Under the pieces are notes generated by a model. It made no database searches, was not told the DNA's origin, and worked only from the letters and a program-made list of their open reading frames with translations. This document shows, in pieces, positions 49,995 to 63,985 of a stretch of DNA of 64,000 nucleotides. Numbering within the stretch: the stretch's first letter is position 1; each line of letters opens with the position of its first letter. The DNA is from a bacterium (GTDB taxonomy: Bacteria; RBG-13-61-14; DATKZS01), in contig CAXXFL010000007.1 of NCBI GenBank assembly GCA_963674965.2, forward strand, positions 576,001 through 640,000, given 5' to 3'. The translations under genes and the position numbers were made by a program.

Positions 49995-50741
49995 ATCTGG
50001 GGACAGCATACTTAATTGTTGACATACATCTTCCTCTGTTGCAAAATTTTACCATGGTCAGGATGGCGAGAGCCGTTGTTCCTCACGCGCCCCACCAGGT
50101 TACCCAGCGGGGCAACAGGAGACAGCAAACGTTTTTCACGGGCGAAGACTACGAGGCGTACGTCTCCCTCATTTCCGAGTGGGCCCGAAAGCGCGGCGTC
50201 GAGGTTTGGGCCTATTGCCTGATGCCCAACCACGTCCACCTCATAGCCGTGCCCGAAACCGAGGACGGCCTGCGACTGGCCATCGGGGAGGCCCATCGGC
50301 GCTACACCCGCATGATTAACTTTCGCGAGGGATGGCGCGGACACCTCTGGCAGGGCCGTTTTGCCTCCTATGTCATGGATGAAATACACCTTATGGCCTG
50401 CGCCCGCTACGTCGAGATGAACCCCGTCCGAGCCGGTCTCGTCGATTCTCCCCAGGCCTGGCGCTTCTCGAGCGCCTCGGCCCATCTCATGGGCAAGGAC
50501 GACGAATTAGTCAAAGTATCCGGCTTGTTAGACAAGGTACCACATAAATGGGAGGACTTTTTGAATCTGCCCGTAATTGGCTCCGAGGTATCGCGAATAA
50601 AAACGCACGAGCGCACCGGGCGCCCCCTCGGGGAAAAGGACTTCGTCGCGGGACTCGAGACCGCCCTCGGCCGCCGCCTCTCCCCCCAAAAGCCGGGCCC
50701 AAAACCCGAAAAGAAGTGAGTTAAGTATGGTGTCCCCAGAT
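49995..50741 (+). mobile_element. RAYT/Y1 transposase element bounded by 21-bp inverted repeats
   Basis: ATCTGGGGACAGCATACTTAA (49995-50015) and TTAAGTATGGTGTCCCCAGAT (50721-50741) match at 20/21. Confidence 0.75.
50054..50719 (+). CDS. REP-associated tyrosine transposase (HUH, Y1_Tnp)
   Basis: HQVTQRGNRRQ, YCLMPNHVHL (HUH), HLWQGRF, RYVEMNPVRAG. Confidence 0.9.
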   Translation: MVRMARAVVPHAPHQVTQRGNRRQQTFFTGEDYEAYVSLISEWARKRGVEVWAYCLMPNHVHLIAVPETEDGLRLAIGEAHRRYTRMINFREGWRGHLWQGRFASYVMDEIHLMACARYVEMNPVRAGLVDSPQAWRFSSASAHLMGKDDELVKVSGLLDKVPHKWEDFLNLPVIGSEVSRIKTHERTGRPLGEKDFVAGLETALGRRLSPQKPGPKPEKK

Positions 50742-50842: not shown

Positions 50843-51961
50843 ATGTTTATCAAAAATATATTAATATATTTTATTCTATTGGTCATTTCATTTATATTTC
50901 CATATTATGCGCACGCCGCCACTTATTACGTTCTCCTTGGAAGAGATAGTCCTTATCCGCATAATGTCCACGCTGACGGAAGCGCGACAGCCATATATAA
51001 AATAGACTCAAATTTCGACGTAGATCTCATTAGTATTAATGATTACTCTAATTATTATATAGACTTGATAGATTTTGACAAACAGGATTATATTATTAAT
51101 AATATTGGTAATAAATTTGTAAATTGCCGTTCATATATAATAAATGATGCCGATAAAAATTACATTGAAAACTTCATTAAATCAGCTGATAATATTTTTA
51201 AAAATAATTCCGGCCTAAAATATGCAAATAACGACGATGATTTCTGGTGGGATATAAAAACCATAATTAAAGTTGACAATAATAAAGTGATGGCTTTTGA
51301 GTATTGGAAAGCACGTTATTCCATCGAGGCAAACATTAAACTGAATAAGGAAGATGTTCAAATGCTGGAATCTATAAATGAAGCGATTTTCCAGCTACGT
51401 GAGAATATTTACTTTTCCGATACATCCAAGAGCAAATTGGGAGATCCCGAAGATCAAGTGATAACTGAATTAACGACGTTGTTTAGAAATGTCATCGATA
51501 TGTATGAAGATGAATATATTATTGATAGGCAATTTACGGACGTCGCGTGCTTTTATGCAATGTTGATGCTAACTCAGCAAAAAATATTGCCTGATGTATT
51601 CCTTAATCCATCATTGAGAAACTGCCTAGGGAATATTGTAAGTTATTCATTTTCAAGAGACAGAGAATATATTCTATATTTTTATTTTGATGATAAACCC
51701 GGCATGTATTTACAGGCCGTAGGAAAAGCCGGCTATGGATTTATAAATTCATGCGGGCATGATATGAATGATGCATGTAGAGATCATCTACGGTCCATTA
51801 AACTTATGTACCTTTATGGAACCCATGATAAAATTATTGAATTAGATAGACTTATATCTCCTGATATCTATTATAATGATACTGGGGAACTTGCCGCTGA
51901 GCTCAACTCATTTAAAAAGAAGATCAATAAAGAGAAATATGGAATAACGTTTGATGAATAG
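50843..51961 (+). CDS. AT-rich secreted hypothetical protein
   Basis: AGGAGG RBS, signal peptide ending AHA, 372-aa open frame in low-GC DNA. Confidence 0.7.
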   Translation: MFIKNILIYFILLVISFIFPYYAHAATYYVLLGRDSPYPHNVHADGSATAIYKIDSNFDVDLISINDYSNYYIDLIDFDKQDYIINNIGNKFVNCRSYIINDADKNYIENFIKSADNIFKNNSGLKYANNDDDFWWDIKTIIKVDNNKVMAFEYWKARYSIEANIKLNKEDVQMLESINEAIFQLRENIYFSDTSKSKLGDPEDQVITELTTLFRNVIDMYEDEYIIDRQFTDVACFYAMLMLTQQKILPDVFLNPSLRNCLGNIVSYSFSRDREYILYFYFDDKPGMYLQAVGKAGYGFINSCGHDMNDACRDHLRSIKLMYLYGTHDKIIELDRLISPDIYYNDTGELAAELNSFKKKINKEKYGITFDE

Positions 51962-56677: not shown

Positions 56678-57295
56678 TCAGTTGGCCTTATGCCCCATGC
56701 CCACCTCGAGGAAGTGCTTGAGTATCTTCGCCGTTGCCCCCCACACCGTGTACCCCTTGATCCTGTAAAAATAAACCGGATAATCGTCGCTTCCCTTTTT
56801 CCAGTTCTGTACGGTCAGGTTTTCCGGCTTCATGAACTCGCTGAGGGGAAGGATGAGTATCTCCGCTATCTCCTCCTCCTGGGGTGTGAACTCGATGGGG
56901 TAAGGAATGACGCCCACGTAGGGCCGGATGCGAAACCCGGTGATGGTGATTTTATCGTCGAGCCTGCCCAGCACCCTGACCTTGCCCGCGGGCACGCCTA
57001 TCTCCTCCTCCGTCTCGCGCAAGGCCGTGTACTCGAGGTCCGGGTCGTCCTCCTCGTAGTGGCCGCCGGGAAAGGATATCTCGCCCTTGTGGTGCTCGAC
57101 CTTGTCCGTGCGCCTGGTCAGAACCACGTGCCACTTGCCGTCCTTCTTGAGGATGGGAATGAGCACCCCCGCTATCTTCATGCCCTCAGGGTCGATCCGC
57201 CTCGGTTCCCAGGCCGCCAGGGCCGACTTGATCTCCGACTCCTCCGGCTCCCGAGAGTTTCCTCCCCCATCCGTCCTGTTTATAGATTCATCCAT
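56678..57295 (-). CDS. Nudix hydrolase (CoA pyrophosphatase, NudL-like)
   Basis: LTRR...HKGEISFPGG, ALRETEEEIG, VWGATA; probable start at 57295. Confidence 0.9.
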   Translation of the reverse strand: MDESINRTDGGGNSREPEESEIKSALAAWEPRRIDPEGMKIAGVLIPILKKDGKWHVVLTRRTDKVEHHKGEISFPGGHYEEDDPDLEYTALRETEEEIGVPAGKVRVLGRLDDKITITGFRIRPYVGVIPYPIEFTPQEEEIAEILILPLSEFMKPENLTVQNWKKGSDDYPVYFYRIKGYTVWGATAKILKHFLEVGMGHKAN

Positions 57296-58151
57296 CTCAT
57301 CACCATGTTCTTCCGATGGCGGCGCATAGGGTTTACCAAAACCGCTTGCGTCCCGCCCCGCGGTACGGGTACCTCCAGGCGCCGCTAGGCCGCAGGGTAA
57401 CCCGTCCGGTTTCAAAGAAACCGCGCGGATCCCGCAAAGCGGGATGGGTACTCCGGCCTCGCCCTCCCAACCCGCTTCCTTGTCAAATGATACCACCTTA
57501 CGCTCGATTAACGCCAATCGTGGGGAAGAGACGGTGAGGGGCCGTGGAGGGGGATGAGAAATGATCATGATTATACGGACTATTGGAGTTGTTTTTTTAC
57601 ATTTGATTCAGAAGCTCATTAAACTTTTCTTTAGCATTATTGAACCGTTCATAAGAACCGCCAAAAAGGCCCGCTTTTAGTGGGGGCCATTCATCTTTTA
57701 ACTCATCGGCCTCTGTTGCGATTTGTACTCTAAACCATGATTCAGTCAATTGCTTTCCTCTTATGAAACTTCCTATTGGAAAATATTTTGGCTCTTGCGC
57801 TTGAATTCTTGAATCTGCATGAATAAGCGCGTAAAGATATTCAAATCTGTCAAAGATATTTTGGAATTCCAATTCAGACGCAAAGAGTTCTCTGAACTCA
57901 CCGAGAAGAAGATTGTAGAGGTGATCATTCAGTGGAGTTACTGCGTTGTTTGATTCTGGAATTAGCTTGCCTTTCATCACGCTCCATGTGTATATGAGCC
58001 TTGCGATTGGAATAATATGGCCATGCTTTTTTTCGCCTGCTTTAACAGTCAATGCGTGTAAAGTTTTATACTTATTCTTCGCTATTGCCCCCATGCCCCC
58101 TGAGTACAGTAGAAGCAATGCAGGGTATTTTGTAAGGTTTATTAAATCTTC

Positions 58152-59585
58152 CTGAACTTTAGAACTTTTTAGCCATGTTCCACCATGTAAAAATAGCGTT
58201 CACCAGTTTTTCCCGTATAATGAGAGGTGTGATCGGCCCTCATAACGCGGGAGTGAACGCTGATGAACGCTCAAGCTCTTATGTTGCCGCTGATGCTTGT
58301 ATTTGTCAACTGCTTCTCCAAGCCCGGGTTCGAGCACTTCCAGACCTTCATTATCGCCCACGCGGCGCTGTTCGGTCTCCAGCACTGCGTGACCGAGGTC
58401 ATGCGCCTCACCCAAGTCCACCGGGTCATGCACTGGACCACGCCCTACGCTTTCATGCGCAAGGGCCGGTGGTCCTGCCAAAAGGTGAGTCAATGCCTGC
58501 TCGACCTGGTGGCCCAACGACTCAAGATCATGGACGAGATCGTCGTCGCCGTCGACGACACCCTGGTCAAGAAATGGGGCAAGAAGTTCTTCGGTCTGGG
58601 CTATTACCCGGACCCGACGGACAAAAACCCCGGCCATCAAAAGCGCCGGGTGCTCGGCCACTGCTGGGTGGTGATGGCGCTTCTATGGGAGCGCGGGGGC
58701 AAGTGGTTCGCCTTCCCCCTCTCGGCGCTGCTCTTCGTCCAGGAAAAGTTTTGCCCCAAGGGATGGGAGTTCAAAACCAAGATCGAGTTGGCCGCCATGA
58801 TGATAAAAAGGTTCTCCTGGCCCGCTCGGAGACTGGTCCTGGTGGTGGACAACCTCTACGCCAAGGCCAAGTTGGCCGGTCTCGAGTTCGACGGCAAAGA
58901 GGTGGTCCTGATCAGCCGCCTCCGCTCGAACGCGGCGCTCTACGAACTCCCCAAAAGGAAGAATGGTCCGGGAAGGCCGCCCAAGCGCGGCAAGAAGTTC
59001 AGCCCCCAACAACTGTGGTTGAAAAGATCGAAGCGCGAAAAAATCAAGGCCAGGATTTACGGCAAGACCGTTACCATCGAGGCCTTCGTCGGGGTGATGG
59101 TCCCCAGCGCCACCCTCGGCGACAAGCCGATACTCGTCATCATTTTCCCCCGGCGCTCCGGCAAAAAAATGAACGTGTTTTTCACCACCGACGTCGAGAT
59201 GAAGCCGGAGCGGGCGCTGGAAACGTATTCGGGCCGCTGGAAGATCGAGGAGTTGTTCCGGGAGGTGAAGACGGCGGGCGGTTTCGGCGACTATCGCCAG
59301 AGGTCGTTCACGGCCATCAAGCGCCACGCCAACCTCTGCCTGGTCGCCTACGGCCTTTTGGGCCTGCTTGCCCTTTGCGTCCCGGAGGCGGAAAAGATCG
59401 AGGCCGAACCGTGGTGGGACCCGAGCGGCCCCCCAAGCGTCGGTCGGCTCCGACGCGCTTTCTACAAGGCTTTGCGAATTTCTCCCGCTTTCCATTCCGA
59501 CCCCAAACCAGAGGAAATTACGCCCCTCAAGGAGGCTGCTTAATGTCGATACGTGCAAACCAGACTAAAAAGTTCTAAAGTTCAG
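58152..59585 (+). mobile_element. Insertion sequence, IS701/IS4-like (1434 bp)
   Basis: Perfect 21-bp TIR CTGAACTTTAGAACTTTTTAG; 9-bp target duplication TAAATCTTC at 58143-58151 and 59586-59594. Confidence 0.92.
58263..59543 (+). CDS. DDE transposase
   Basis: VAVDDT, VVDNLY and YSGRWKIEELFREVK (YREK-like) motifs. Confidence 0.9.
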   Translation: MNAQALMLPLMLVFVNCFSKPGFEHFQTFIIAHAALFGLQHCVTEVMRLTQVHRVMHWTTPYAFMRKGRWSCQKVSQCLLDLVAQRLKIMDEIVVAVDDTLVKKWGKKFFGLGYYPDPTDKNPGHQKRRVLGHCWVVMALLWERGGKWFAFPLSALLFVQEKFCPKGWEFKTKIELAAMMIKRFSWPARRLVLVVDNLYAKAKLAGLEFDGKEVVLISRLRSNAALYELPKRKNGPGRPPKRGKKFSPQQLWLKRSKREKIKARIYGKTVTIEAFVGVMVPSATLGDKPILVIIFPRRSGKKMNVFFTTDVEMKPERALETYSGRWKIEELFREVKTAGGFGDYRQRSFTAIKRHANLCLVAYGLLGLLALCVPEAEKIEAEPWWDPSGPPSVGRLRRAFYKALRISPAFHSDPKPEEITPLKEAA

Positions 59586-59888
59586 TAAATCTTCATGTGC
59601 ATATATGTATTCGGGGGTATATGCTATTGCCTCCAAGGCTTTGACCCAAAGATCATCATGCTCGTCTTTGCCCCAATAACATCCATATAAAAACAATGAT
59701 CGAAGAGTTTCCGTGATGGCTTCATAGCGCTCTACTCTCTCTAAAAATTGAGAATCGGAGTAATCTTCATTAATTGGGAAATGTTCCACCGATATCTGTT
59801 GTCTGACTTTTTTTACCTCCCCTCTGTGCCAACGTAGATGAGACACTTCCCCTATGTTAAATTACTGTAGGGCGGGGGAGGTATTAGG

Positions 59889-60428
59889 ATGTATAGAGAG
59901 ATGGATGAAGACAGGAAGAAGGCAGGGATTGTTGGGGAGACGGAGGGAGCCCGTAGGGCGACCGGAGTCTCCCCAACCGGGACGGCCGAGCCGGAGGACA
60001 CTCCTGCCAAGCGGCCCGAGCGGGTGGGGGCGCCGATCATTCTTCCCGAGCCGGAGGTCCCGGAAAAGCCCGCCCGGCGGCGCTTCACCGCGGCTTACAA
60101 GCTCGCAATCCTCGGGAAGGCCGACGCCTGCTCGGGGCATGGCGAGGTCGGCGCCCTGCTGCGCCGGGAGGGCCTTTATTCGTCGCACCTGACGGCCTGG
60201 CGCAAGCAGCGGGACGAGGGGGCCTTGAAAGCGCTTTCGCCCGTAAAGCGGGGCCGCAAGCCCAAGGCCAAAAACCCGCTGGCCGATGAAGTGGCCCGCC
60301 TCGAGCGCGAGAACGGGAAGCTCCAAAAGCGGCTCGAACAGGCCGAGATGATAATCGACTTCCAAAAAAAAGTTGCCGATCTGCTGGGGATACCCCTGGC
60401 CAAGCCGCCCGGCGAAGAGAGCGAATGA
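59889..60428 (+). CDS. IS3-family OrfA
   Basis: RRRFTAAYKLAIL, LLRREGLYSSHLTAWRKQ HTH, C-terminal coiled coil. Confidence 0.88.
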   Translation: MYREMDEDRKKAGIVGETEGARRATGVSPTGTAEPEDTPAKRPERVGAPIILPEPEVPEKPARRRFTAAYKLAILGKADACSGHGEVGALLRREGLYSSHLTAWRKQRDEGALKALSPVKRGRKPKAKNPLADEVARLERENGKLQKRLEQAEMIIDFQKKVADLLGIPLAKPPGEESE

Positions 60429-61441
60429 TGGAATCGGCAAGCACGGCCGCTCCCCGGGTCGGCGCCAAGGCCGCCTGCGAGGCCCTGGGCCTGTCGCGAG
60501 CAACGTTTAATCGTCGCGCTAAAATTCCCTTCGGGCCTCCGCCGCCGAGGCGCGCGGCCAAGCCGGCAAGGTCGTTGAGCGAGGACGAGCGGCGCCGGGT
60601 GCTGGACGAACTCCACTCCGAGCGCTTTGCCGACAAGGCCCCCCGCGAGGTCTGGGCAACGCTCCTGGACGAGGGGACATGGCTGTGCTCGGTCCGCACC
60701 ATGTACCGCGTCCTCGACTCGGAAAAGGAAGTCCGGGAGCGGCGCAACCAACTCCGGCGTCCCCGATACAAAAAACCCGAGTTGCTGGCCGAGGCCCCCA
60801 ACCAGGTCTGGTCCTGGGACGTCACCAAACTCAAGGGACCGGCCAAATGGACCTGCTACCAACTCTACGTGATCATGGACATCTTCAGCCGCTGCGTGGT
60901 GGGATGGATGATCGCCGGACGCGAAAGCGCGGAGCTGGCCCGCCGCCTGATCGGGGACAGCATCCGAAAACAGGGGATCGAGCCGGGACAACTCACCATC
61001 CACGCCGACCGGGGGAGTTCGATGAAATCAAAGCCGGTGGCCTTCTTGATGGCCGACCTGGGCGTGACCAAGAGCCACTCGCGGCCCCACGTGTCCGACG
61101 ACAACCCCTACTCGGAAAGCCAGTTCAAGACCATGAAGTACCGGCCCGAGTTCCCGAGCCGGTTCGGCTCCATCGAGGACGCCAGGGCCTTTTGCGTGAA
61201 GTTTTTCGATTGGTACAACCGCGAGCATCGGCACACCGGGATCGGCCTGATGACGCCCGAGATGGTCCATTACGGAATGGCGAGCGAGATCGTGGCCGCC
61301 AGGCAAAAAACGCTCGACCACGCCTATGAAAAAAAACCGGAGCGCTTCGTGAAAAGACCGCCGACGGCGCCGGAGTTGCCCGGCAAAGCGTGGATCAACC
61401 CACCGGCGAAACCGGAGGAAATAAACAGTTTGCCACACTAA
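60425..61441 (+). CDS. IS3-family OrfB (rve DDE)
   Basis: WSWDVT, HADRGSSM, DNPYSESQFKTMK; -1 frame relative to OrfA. Confidence 0.92.
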   Translation: MMESASTAAPRVGAKAACEALGLSRATFNRRAKIPFGPPPPRRAAKPARSLSEDERRRVLDELHSERFADKAPREVWATLLDEGTWLCSVRTMYRVLDSEKEVRERRNQLRRPRYKKPELLAEAPNQVWSWDVTKLKGPAKWTCYQLYVIMDIFSRCVVGWMIAGRESAELARRLIGDSIRKQGIEPGQLTIHADRGSSMKSKPVAFLMADLGVTKSHSRPHVSDDNPYSESQFKTMKYRPEFPSRFGSIEDARAFCVKFFDWYNREHRHTGIGLMTPEMVHYGMASEIVAARQKTLDHAYEKKPERFVKRPPTAPELPGKAWINPPAKPEEINSLPH

Positions 61442-62596
61442 ATTCAGGAAAGGCGTGTCTCATTTTGCTTGACACATTCCGCTCTTCCATAACCAAATCA
61501 TGGAGGCTGATGGAATGCTTTTCATCGGCCAGATATTTTTTAAGGCTTGCGACGGCAACTTTTTTGGACAGCGGGTGGGGCTTATCGATTTGATCAAGCG
61601 CCGAGACCTTTTCATATAGCTCGTGGAAGAATTCATCCGCGCCTTTGATTTTTATCGACTCCGCTCTCCGAAGTTTGATTAAATCTTCGGATTTTGCGTT
61701 AGGATTGCCCCTGATTGTCCAGAAGGTAGTATATCGATGGCTTTTACATCTGCTCATTGCGTCCCTTAGCGCGTAATCCCACTCGGCCGACCACCCACAG
61801 ACAATGAGGCCAAATTCATCGAAGATTCTATCCAGCAGCTCGTCAAGCTCCCGGTCGTACTCCTTTAGCTCATCAGGAGTGTTTTTGATACGTGAATCCA
61901 GGTAATCTCCGTGAACCTTTACAATGGTGCAATCCGAATGCATCAAGGGAGTAGCGCCCTTGATGGCGTCTATTGTCGATATCACGTCGGGTCTGATTCC
62001 CTCTTCTTGTAAAGCATCCTCCATCAGGCGGTCAAAGTTGGTTGTAACGATAACCTTGACAAAACCACCCGCGACCAATTTTGCCATGGCCACATGCGCG
62101 GGAGTGGGCATTTTCAAGCCCTGTTCCTTCTCTTCATCATTTGGCTCGAAATATTGTCTCAACAATTTCTGCCTTTCAATTTGAGATTTTGCAACGTCTC
62201 CAAGTAACTTTGAATAATCTGGCCCCTCTCCGAAAGTTCTTGTATACCAGGCCTCAGCGTCCGGTTCGGAGTCTTCTCCCTTCAAACGCGCCAGCTTTCT
62301 GGTTAGATCGAGCGTAATTTCCCAACCCGTTGATATGCGGGCGGACCTTGACACGCCCGAGCCTAAAAGCAAAGCGTAGACGCCCTTGTTCGAGTGCATC
62401 GAGAAGGCCAGTGATAAAACAGGGTCTATCATTCTATCCTCCAAAATCCATTGATACCAATAGAGATATTCCCATGGGTGCTTTTCATTTTCAAGTCGGC
62501 AAAGTCCCATCCCGCCTCATCGCCGACCCGCTCGCGAAGCTCGCCCACATAGCGAGCTACGTGGGATACTTATTACGTAAATTCAATTTAACTCGA

Positions 62597-63985
62597 TCAT
62601 TCAGGATTCACGCTCAAATCGGTTGGTTTAAACATCGGGTGGGCCTCGGTGTTGAAGACCACTTTGTCGAAGTCGAATTCCCCGGGGGGCGCGAAGAGGA
62701 GGTAGAAGTATTTCATGGTCTCGGCCAGGAAAAAACTCTCCATTTCGTCGAGTTGGTTTTTGGACCTTACGTCGGCCAGGGCCGCGTAGCCGGCTTCCGT
62801 CTTGCAGTGTCTTACGAGCCCGTTGAAGAACACCGAGCCCATGCGGCGGTACTCCTCGTCTCCGGTGTAGTGATAAAGGTAATAGGCCGACTCGATTATT
62901 TCCGGCCTGAGATGATAGGGTCCGTAAACCACCTTCATGCTTTTGTAGTTCATAATCTCGGGCTCGATCCCGTGGAGGACCCACATCCGGTAACAGGATT
63001 TTTCGAGGGCCGCGGCCCGGCCCAGGTCGCCGCCCAGGGCCAGAAGGCCGGGCAGGAAAGCCTCGAGGGCGCCGAAGGTGGTCAGGGTCCGCCGGCCCGA
63101 CTTCATGCCCCCTCGGCCGTACCAGAGCCCCTCCCCCGTCTCGTCGGCCAGGTGGGCGTTGACGCCGCCGATGCTCCGCTCCCACATGTCCATGAATTTA
63201 TCGTCCTCAAAGAGGATCGCGCTCTTGAGAAGGTATTCGTAATAGCTGTCGGTCCCGCCGCCGATCGAGGCGTCCCTCCCGATCCAGAGGCCGGTCTCGA
63301 CGTCGATCATCGATCCCACCAGCCCGATATCCGAGCTCCTCTTATATAGCTCGATCGCCGCCCGCTCGGCCTTCTCGTGGTAGATCGGATTTCCCGTCAG
63401 CCTGGACAGGGTACCGTATTCGAGAAGGTAGGTACCGATCTCCGCGGGGTTGCTGAAACGGCCCGAGGTCTTCCCCGTCTTGAGGTTGACGATCCGATAG
63501 GGCATGCCGGTGGGCGAGTCGAAGACCGGCAGCATACGGTCGGCCAAGTCCCGGGCCAGGGCCAGGAAGCGCTCGTCGCCGTCCATCTGATATGCCGAGA
63601 TCAGGCCGCCCAGGACCCTGATGGACACCTCGAAGTGCTGGACCTCCATGTCATGGTCAAAAGAGAGTGAGTCGAAAATCAGCGCCTTGGCCTCCGCCGC
63701 CTCCCGGTCAAGGCCCATGATGAGCATGGTGTCGTAAGCGTCCACCGGCGTCATCAGGAGAGGCGCCTTGTACCAGTCCCGATGGCCCCTGGAAAGCGGC
63801 CTAAGAGCGTCGTGGCCCCAGGCGTATCGCTTATAGCCGTTCCAGGCGTGGAGGAATTCCGCCCTGACCATCTCCTTGGTAACGGGGGTCTCATCGATGA
63901 ACAAGGCGGCTTCCGTGGAAGTATTATTTATTGACAGCAGGGAACAACCCGCGGCGAGTATTCCGGCCGCCAGCATGGCGGCCAT
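62597..63985 (-). CDS. GH47 alpha-1,2-mannosidase family lipoprotein (start may lie outside window)
   Basis: HAWNGYKRYAWGHD, FEVSIRVLGGL, DSYYEYLLK, LRPEIIES, ESFFLAETMKY, FNTEAHP. Confidence 0.92.
   Translation of the reverse strand: MAAMLAAGILAAGCSLLSINNTSTEAALFIDETPVTKEMVRAEFLHAWNGYKRYAWGHDALRPLSRGHRDWYKAPLLMTPVDAYDTMLIMGLDREAAEAKALIFDSLSFDHDMEVQHFEVSIRVLGGLISAYQMDGDERFLALARDLADRMLPVFDSPTGMPYRIVNLKTGKTSGRFSNPAEIGTYLLEYGTLSRLTGNPIYHEKAERAAIELYKRSSDIGLVGSMIDVETGLWIGRDASIGGGTDSYYEYLLKSAILFEDDKFMDMWERSIGGVNAHLADETGEGLWYGRGGMKSGRRTLTTFGALEAFLPGLLALGGDLGRAAALEKSCYRMWVLHGIEPEIMNYKSMKVVYGPYHLRPEIIESAYYLYHYTGDEEYRRMGSVFFNGLVRHCKTEAGYAALADVRSKNQLDEMESFFLAETMKYFYLLFAPPGEFDFDKVVFNTEAHPMFKPTDLSVNPE

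Follow-up and report, generated by a model that had tools for sequence, protein, structure and literature searches.

A gene of the candidate defence family PDC-S65, with an N-terminal SIR2 domain and a C-terminal helical module, split by two recent insertion sequences

The closest described relatives of the gene treated here are defence proteins with a SIR2 domain. In the GsSir2-APAZ protein of SPARSA, the Sir2 domain covers residues 1-309 and the APAZ domain residues 331-587, and alanine exchanges of N142 or H186 in the SPARSA Sir2 abolished NAD+-hydrolysing (NADase) activity (PMC10781750). DSR2 and DSR1 are described as single chains in which an N-terminal SIR2 NADase is joined to a helical C-terminal sensor of a phage protein, the SIR2 protein ThsA of Thoeris goes along with a SLOG or Macro sensor domain and a ThsB/TIR partner, and SIR2-HerA includes a HerA helicase. 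Besides these systems, 145 candidates designated PDC were derived from genes embedded in BREX, DISARM or type I restriction-modification (R-M) systems and are called untested in the preprint (Payne et al., bioRxiv 10.1101/2024.01.29.577857). Here, we describe a SIR2-domain gene in a stretch of 64,000 nucleotides, in the following called the window, from a bacterium of the GTDB lineage RBG-13-61-14; DATKZS01 (assembly GCA_963674965.2, contig CAXXFL010000007.1, positions 576,001 to 640,000 of the forward strand). The gene belongs to one of these candidate families, PDC-S65, and lies in three pieces because two insertion sequences (IS) have entered it. Our explanation for the whole, to which we assign a probability of roughly 65%, is that a horizontally acquired PDC-S65 gene, coding for a single-chain abortive-infection NADase with a sensor module, was recently broken.

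The gene reads on the minus strand from an ATG at 62432, which corresponds to the same start residue as in the homologues, and direct reading reveals a Shine-Dalgarno-like GGAGG (62438..62442, minus strand) five bases 5' of it. Piece 1 (61482..62432, minus strand) comprises 317 codons (residues 1-317) and contains the start codon, the complete SIR2 domain and the first helices of a C-terminal module. Piece 2 (59586..59816, minus strand; 77 codons, residues 318-394) lies within this module, and piece 3 (57597..58142, minus strand; 181 codons and the stop codon, residues 395-575) codes for the remainder of it. The three pieces were identified by reading the minus strand together with the list of open reading frames (ORFs) and were concatenated by a coordinate script. 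Each element together with one copy of its target repeat, 1443 bases for the IS701-family and 1665 bases for the IS3-family element, has a length divisible by three, and the joined product has 575 residues and no internal stop. In BLASTP it aligns as one segment, residues 1-574 against residues 1-576 of an intact homologue of 577 aa; moreover, it matches all 120 stored homologues and aligns from end to end with the intact ones, which are 575-590 aa long, with zero gaps at both junctions. In 63 homologues, 156 columns reach a conservation of at least 90%; the joined product retains 148 of them, and its coding sequence contains neither frameshifts nor stops nor any further lesion. The pieces have a G+C content of 41-48%, while the surrounding window and the genome have about 60%. 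An original prediction made from the letters of the window had proposed that a stand-alone SIR2-domain gene was knocked out by one IS3-like and one IS701-like element and can be reassembled in frame; the minus-strand reading and the joined alignment agree with it in all coordinates, in both junctions and in the arithmetic (317+77+181 = 575 aa). Judged by structure and family membership, it is practically certain that the three pieces are one interrupted gene of PDC-S65.

The IS701-family element (58152..59585, plus strand) is 1434 bp long and was inserted after codon 394, inside the C-terminal module. Its transposase gene (58263-59543) codes for a product that reaches 262.3 bits with NCBIfam NF049999 (cutoff 170) and matches Pfam DDE_5. 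The element is flanked by a target duplication of 9 bp, TAAATCTTC, with the first copy at 59586-59594 within piece 2 and the second copy at 58143-58151, and has terminal inverted repeats of 31 nt (58149-58179 and 59558-59588). Its ends are fixed by eight other full-length copies in the genome, all of which match bases 1-1434 and seven of which are at least 99.86% identical. The IS3-family element (59820..61481, plus strand; 1662 bp) was inserted after codon 317, at the first helices of the module. It carries overlapping orfA (59889-60428) and orfB (60425-61441), terminal inverted repeats at 59825-59846 and 61455-61476, and the target duplication CTC of 3 bp (first copy 61482-61484 within piece 1, second copy 59817-59819). 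The orfB product reaches 181.6 bits with NCBIfam NF033516 (cutoff 160), and the Pfam families of the element are HTH_Tnp_1, rve and rve_3. Including the window copy, the genome contains 23 full copies, 21 of them with a 3-bp duplication, and the left end was set by the fact that most other copies begin to match at base 4 of the query 59817-61481. Both elements are 99.6-100% identical to many sibling copies in the genome. Given this near-identity to sibling copies, the perfect duplications and a coding sequence free of other lesions, both insertions are recent, as had been supposed, and the SIR2 gene is dead in this genome.

Two observations concern the elements themselves. Seen by eye, the copies of the IS701-family element elsewhere in the genome are flanked by duplications of 8 bp in five of eight cases and by none in the other three, while the window copy has 9 bp. 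Furthermore, the flanks of 31 of the 32 full-length copies of both elements have a G+C content of 0.35-0.52, at a genome value of about 0.6, so that both elements seem to build up in AT-rich, probably foreign DNA. With the copies concentrated in low-G+C flanks, an AT-rich foreign gene was likely to be hit, regardless of any selection for its loss. A promoter and terminator scan of 57400-62700 gave no more sites than shuffled sequences.

The assignment to PDC-S65 comes from PADLOC-DB v2, in which the family is a single-gene entry with the profile hidden Markov models PDLC05061 and PDLC05060. The three pieces match PDLC05061 (592 positions) colinearly, piece 1 with E 1e-164 (profile positions 12-331), piece 2 with E 7.8e-11 (332-398) and piece 3 with E 6.2e-28 (410-588), and the intact homologue P0041 (577 aa) of Neomoorella thermoacetica reaches E 2e-219 with the PDC-S65 profile. 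The window gene is a broken member of a catalogued but uncharacterised candidate family. "Uncharacterised" had been the word of the original prediction as well; in the sense of uncatalogued it does not apply, as the match of piece 1 makes clear. A match to an already named system, which the original prediction had listed among its refutations, is thus present in a weak sense, the name being the catalogue entry of a candidate. A cold-seep study assayed eight candidates, and PDC-S65 is not among them. Like the family as catalogued, the window gene is a single gene whose homologues lie partly within type I R-M operons, and no conserved partner accompanies the family in the 79 homologous loci described below; the window copy differs in being broken by two IS elements and embedded in no defence system.

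The sole Pfam domain of the protein is SIR2_2 (PF13289; 47.1 bits at a cutoff of 24.5, piece-1 residues 127-260), and NCBIfam holds no model for the protein. The closest solved SIR2 relative is the Sir2 of SPARSA (8jkz/8jl0/8in8; E 7e-16 over residues 22-292), and with the full-length model Foldseek also finds a SPARSA chain first (8y80_E, E 3.4e-11), followed by ThsA, KomC and DSR2. The motifs TTNFD and HGD of the family align with those of 8jkz_A that contain N142 and H186, and both are retained in the window protein. From the Pfam match, the nearest solved relatives and these motifs, the N-terminal domain is predicted to be a SIR2 of the NAD+-hydrolysing defence type. In all 1953 pairs compared within the SIR2 family, conservation is higher in the enzyme half than in the C-terminal module (64.6% vs 45.3%).

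The similarity to the SIR2-APAZ protein of SPARSA goes beyond the catalytic motifs, as both have a SIR2 domain followed by a second domain of about 270 aa, both are of nearly equal length (584-587 aa in SPARSA) and both are probably latent NADases, PDC-S65 by prediction. However, the second domain of PDC-S65 is not detectably APAZ, as the alignments end at about residue 290-320, though the two may be very remotely related, and an Argonaute gene is found neither beside the window gene nor as a conserved neighbour in the 79 loci. The best functional analogy is DSR2/DSR1, which share the single chain with N-terminal SIR2 and helical C-terminal part, although they are much larger, with about 1000 aa in DSR2 and about 1263 positions in the Dsr1 model, in contrast to 575 aa here. 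The NCBIfam Dsr1 model gives 13.6 bits (cutoff 1400), DSR2 chains align convincingly over the SIR2 part only, with long Foldseek alignments at a root mean square deviation of 16-20 Å, and no DSR2 chain is among the best 50 Foldseek rows for the C-terminal module alone. With ThsA of Thoeris the protein shares a SIR2 domain, a NADase in ThsA (PADLOC ThsA E 3e-7 over about 55 residues; Foldseek 8wc0, 6lhx and 7uxt), but it lacks a SLOG-type signal-binding domain, and no ThsB/TIR partner gene adjoins it; SIR2-HerA differs by its helicase gene. The earlier statement that no HerA, prokaryotic Argonaute (pAgo) or ThsB partner lies nearby stands, with a PADLOC match to any of them in none of the 17 flanking ORFs.

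The C-terminal module comprises about 280 aa and begins near a conserved helix at about residue 296. No Pfam, NCBIfam or Protein Data Bank (PDB) sequence matches it, and a profile of the protein run against PDB sequences reaches the SIR2 columns only. The full-length model has a predicted local distance difference test score (pLDDT) of 88 and a predicted template modelling score (pTM) of 0.54, and its Foldseek alignments to SPARSA chains stop after 293-320 columns. When the module was modelled alone from an alignment of 100 sequences, it reached pLDDT 97.1 and pTM 0.94, with an all-helical architecture and one small hairpin. Foldseek of the module against the PDB found nothing at E ≤ 1e-3, the best match being designed armadillo repeats at E 0.045 and a template modelling (TM) score below 0.3, and VIA-align against 48,161 chains gave generic helical matches, the best with Z 7.2 over 77 residues and none with Z of at least 8. 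In the viral library BFVD no match at E ≤ 1e-3 was obtained, the named-feature search of the ESM Atlas returned no usable match, and the prediction of a homodimer from two copies of the module scored 0.00, which is uninformative either way. A helical fold that finds no match is no proof of a new fold; as far as the model can tell, an easy assignment to APAZ, SLOG or TPR (tetratricopeptide repeat) is ruled out, in line with the original reading that none of these patterns can be recognised in the region. The conserved motifs are YPALLLLY.GG, TP.SD, FDRFEY and WPPLKAGLFGGS. One Glu and one Gly of the module are invariant and one Asp is nearly so, and aromatic residues, Gly and Pro make up most of its conserved positions.

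The module has an evolutionary life independent of SIR2: it is an autonomous and confidently folded domain that also occurs behind other N-termini. Among the best 150 relatives of piece 3, 115 were scanned with Pfam (three had been scanned earlier, and 32 short proteins, likely fragments, were dropped). The family in front of the module was SIR2_2 in 31 of them, TIR_2 in four (one also SEFIR), PilZ in three, a caspase (Peptidase_C14) in two, and Mrr_cat, a protein kinase and a zinc ribbon in one each, whereas 72 had no family there. A lenient scan added HNH_2 and, below threshold, CAP12-type TIR N-termini. A search restricted to the module region found TIR_2 in front of it in P0168 (443 aa), while a short zinc ribbon precedes it in P0138, P0143 and P0145; the TIR of P0168 is nearest to the Argonaute-associated TIR (PADLOC Aga_TIR-PNTD, E 3.3e-14). 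The structure search of the ESM Atlas independently retrieved TIR_2, TIR/SEFIR and stand-alone clusters at TM 0.79-0.91, the C-termini of the TIR_2 and TIR/SEFIR clusters at TM 0.87-0.91, and the stand-alone clusters consist of about 274 aa with no second domain. Fusion to TIR, caspase and nuclease domains, which had been suggested as a check, does occur. Many short metagenome forms of the module are contig-end fragments.

For the genomic neighbourhood of the family, ORFs were crudely called in 80 homologous loci and clustered all against all, and 79 loci had a callable homologue. Only three neighbour families recur, which by Pfam are HsdS, HsdM and HsdR. In 19 of the 79 loci, type I R-M genes are found no farther than 10 kb from the gene, and in nine loci the order is hsdM/hsdS, SIR2 gene, hsdR on one strand; apart from type I R-M there is no conserved partner, and no neighbour family is present in more than 15 loci. 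Among the nearest neighbours scanned, 27 of 138 match PADLOC at E ≤ 1e-10, including HmaC, type IIG R-M, HEC-01A, Old/AriA, ShosT, HamB-like and SAVED-HNH proteins as well as PDC-S01/S02/S11/S19/S31/S37/S41 (four of the 27 look generic), and 12 further nearest neighbours, counted separately, are type I R-M genes. The ORFs farthest from the gene in these loci, at a distance of 7 kb or more, served as a control; nine of 105 matched PADLOC, and one more was an R-M gene. With R-M included, 39 of 150 nearest neighbours compare with 10 of 106 distant ORFs (odds ratio 3.4, p 0.001), a control that itself lies inside possible defence islands, and the association of homologues with defence genes that the original prediction had named as a check is thus present. 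By our count, type I R-M genes or a nearest neighbour of a specific defence type are present in 33 of the 79 loci. Two further features were each seen in three loci. An 8xMP gene (Pfam PF24838, octameric membrane protein) stands between the SIR2 gene and hsdR in three R-M-embedded loci (L034:15917-16429, L037:12174-12677 and L060:8130-8636), and a separate TIR_2-domain gene occurs near the PDC-S65 gene in three loci (L039:8940-10004, L060:3886-4668 and L076:8697-9233), which in L039 ends where the SIR2 gene begins.

The family is very large, widespread and patchy. In an exhaustive search with piece 3, 1247 representative proteins out of 1.84 billion matched at E ≤ 1e-3, and with one genome per species at least 551 contigs (of 585 pattern matches listed) encode a relative. 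Carriers among the matches listed belong to many bacterial phyla and include Methanothrix, Methanosarcina and a Heimdallarchaeote, and 46 plasmids, among them plasmids of Halobacterium, Streptomyces and Bacillus, carry the family. A search with piece 1 among proteins of 556-2000 aa yielded at least 4883 at E ≤ 1e-3 among 8000 scored candidates, which are SIR2-bearing proteins of that length and not solely PDC-S65 members; the best 120 relatives have 562-612 aa and are 60-69% identical over the SIR2 part. In the own phylum of the bacterium, two of 13 genomes carry the gene, none of four genomes of the same family does, and the genome of the window contains a single copy. The collection of phages gave one partial match only, to the SIR2 part alone, with 27% identity in a Haloferax virus. 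This is a protein of Haloferax virus Halfgib1 (MW344766.1, 13305-14039; H16), annotated as tetratricopeptide repeat protein, whose SIR2-like stretch is 27% identical to residues 70-303 of P0041. In the search for an empty site, the GH47 homologues of two genomes of the same family did not adjoin NUDIX, TPR or kinase homologues, and no pre-insertion site was found there.

How such a protein works can be proposed by analogy. The helical module would keep the SIR2 domain inactive and, upon infection, would respond to a trigger; it would then free or assemble the SIR2 domain, which would deplete NAD+ and thereby abort the infection. This logic would be analogous to that of DSR2, with a different and much smaller sensing part. 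That the module controls a latent SIR2 NADase in this way, leading to abortive infection, appears somewhat better than an even chance to us; the NADase activity, the abortive outcome, the role of the module as a sensor and the manner in which the enzyme is activated are all predictions.

Several points weigh against this reading. At the window locus, none of the 17 ORFs within about 12 kb on either side matches a PADLOC model at E ≤ 1e-5, and 46 of the 79 homologous loci lack both type I R-M genes and a nearest neighbour of defence type. The loci of the survey are moreover the 80 most similar of at least 551, they are not independent, and they were annotated with a home-made ORF caller. The motifs YPALLLLY.GG, FDRFEY and WPPLKAGLFGGS are unusually conserved for a surface that tracks variable phage proteins. 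The picture of a constant sensor with a swappable effector sits uneasily with the PilZ, zinc-ribbon and stand-alone forms: PilZ, a c-di-GMP-binding type of domain (P0297, P0311 and P0338), and the zinc ribbon of about 25 aa (P0138, P0143, P0145 and P0198) come without a recognisable killing domain. In trees of the module, four of 40 branches are well supported and the TIR-fused rows fall in three places; these trees are too poorly resolved to prove repeated effector swaps and are compatible with a single origin of the TIR fusion. Finally, the literature search found no paper that names or tests PDC-S65 and no structure of the family, the supplementary tables of the Payne preprint lying outside that search. 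Because of the conserved motifs and of the PilZ, zinc-ribbon and stand-alone forms, there is room for rivals in which the protein is a guard, an adaptor or carries an active module.

The guard would be similar to PrrC. PrrC takes the position X in hsdM-hsdS-X-hsdR, i.e., between hsdS and hsdR, and the nine PDC-S65 genes between hsdM/hsdS and hsdR share this niche. According to the preprint (bioRxiv 10.1101/2024.01.29.577857), PrrC occurs almost exclusively within type I R-M systems. A PDC-S65 protein of this kind would monitor the type I R-M complex or its phage inhibitor and fire its NADase only once restriction is disabled; solitary copies such as that of the window would then be relics or partners of an unlinked R-M system. 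The strong conservation of the module's motifs would go well with a cellular partner that is itself conserved. However, type I R-M genes are missing within 10 kb in 60 of the 79 loci, the window gene has no such locus nearby, and the only HsdR-like match of its genome is weak (25% identity) and lies on another contig. PrrC and PDC-S65 also differ in protein family and effector chemistry. Many unrelated defence genes, moreover, are commonly found inside R-M operons (bioRxiv 10.1101/2024.01.29.577857). On the whole, we regard the guard as unlikely. Equally unlikely is a broader proposal that takes up the same evidence, namely that the module is an undescribed immune sensor free of nucleoside triphosphatase (NTPase), heading a large superfamily, made up of single-chain abortive-infection proteins whose killing domains are interchangeable (SIR2, TIR/SEFIR, caspase, Mrr, HNH and kinase), and sensing a conserved cue. 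The unusual conservation of the motifs and the PrrC-like place within type I R-M operons suggest that this cue would be, for example, disabled restriction or an anti-restriction protein instead of a variable phage structural protein.

A lower probability still is given to a two-component system, in which the module replaces APAZ and docks onto a nucleic-acid-guided or other partner that is encoded elsewhere. It could explain why the SIR2 and the TIR effectors are both, within PADLOC, nearest to Argonaute-associated versions, the window SIR2 also matching PADLOC Aga_SIR2-PNTD with E 1.4e-31 and the TIR of P0168 Aga_TIR-PNTD as given above, and why the layout of about 290 residues of SIR2 plus about 280 mirrors GsSir2-APAZ. 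Against it, clustering of the ORFs gave no single neighbour family in more than 15 of the 79 loci (the three type I R-M families together reach 19); Foldseek aligns the SPARSA chains to the SIR2 part only, the module alone is without a PDB match at E ≤ 1e-3, and PADLOC finds no pAgo near the window gene. Just as improbable is that the C-terminal module itself is the active or scaffolding part, being, for example, oligomeric or directed to membranes or nucleic acids, with the N-termini as accessory inputs or add-ons. The non-catalytic zinc-ribbon and PilZ N-termini, the clusters of about 274 aa without another domain, the invariant Glu and the nearly invariant Asp would fit such a role. Yet the conserved positions, mostly aromatic, Gly or Pro, look structural, many of the short forms are the contig-end fragments mentioned above, and the commonest partners (SIR2, TIR, caspase, Mrr and HNH) are classic killing domains. 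It is very improbable that the protein is an ordinary regulatory sirtuin (protein deacylase or ADP-ribosyltransferase) without a role in phage defence, lost to the IS elements by neutral decay. Weak CobB-type NCBIfam matches (E 2e-4, far below the cutoff) and the 46 loci without visible defence neighbours would agree with it. But these matches span only about 35 residues at the NAD-binding motif, and both sequence and structure place the domain nearest to defence NADases throughout (SPARSA, ThsA, DSR2 and KomC). The exchange of SIR2 for TIR, caspase or nuclease effectors, the patchy occurrence and the presence on plasmids also speak against it.

Around the window gene lie genes for a NUDIX hydrolase, a GH47 glycosidase and a TPR protein as well as a large ORF that by eye resembles a sensor histidine kinase. 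The gene itself is a solitary AT-rich insert between the NUDIX and the GH47 gene, both of the housekeeping type, so that the defence island of the original prediction is not borne out at this locus. On the same strand as the SIR2 gene, and 29 bases beyond its stop codon, begins the longest ORF of the NUDIX gene (56678-57568, minus strand). The pairing of a NUDIX hydrolase with an ADP-ribose-producing enzyme looks coincidental, because the NUDIX gene has a host-like G+C content and NUDIX genes are not among the recurring neighbours of the 79 homologous loci. At some distance, an ORF of 372 aa (50843-51961, plus strand) with a hydrophobic N-terminus and no PADLOC match lies in a patch of 29-33% G+C and adjoins a REP-associated tyrosine transposase (50039-50719).

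The broken gene itself is ordinary, a foreign and probably costly defence gene that was lost to two active insertion sequences, and the interest is in the unexplored C-terminal module of the family and not in the window pseudogene. What is added here is that the C-terminal half is an autonomous, confidently folded domain without a convincing match among solved structures, that this module is joined to at least seven other types of N-terminal domains besides SIR2, and that the SIR2 and TIR versions are nearest to Argonaute-associated NADases. PDC-S65 is therefore a compact and well-defined target for finding a new principle of trigger sensing in prokaryotic immunity.

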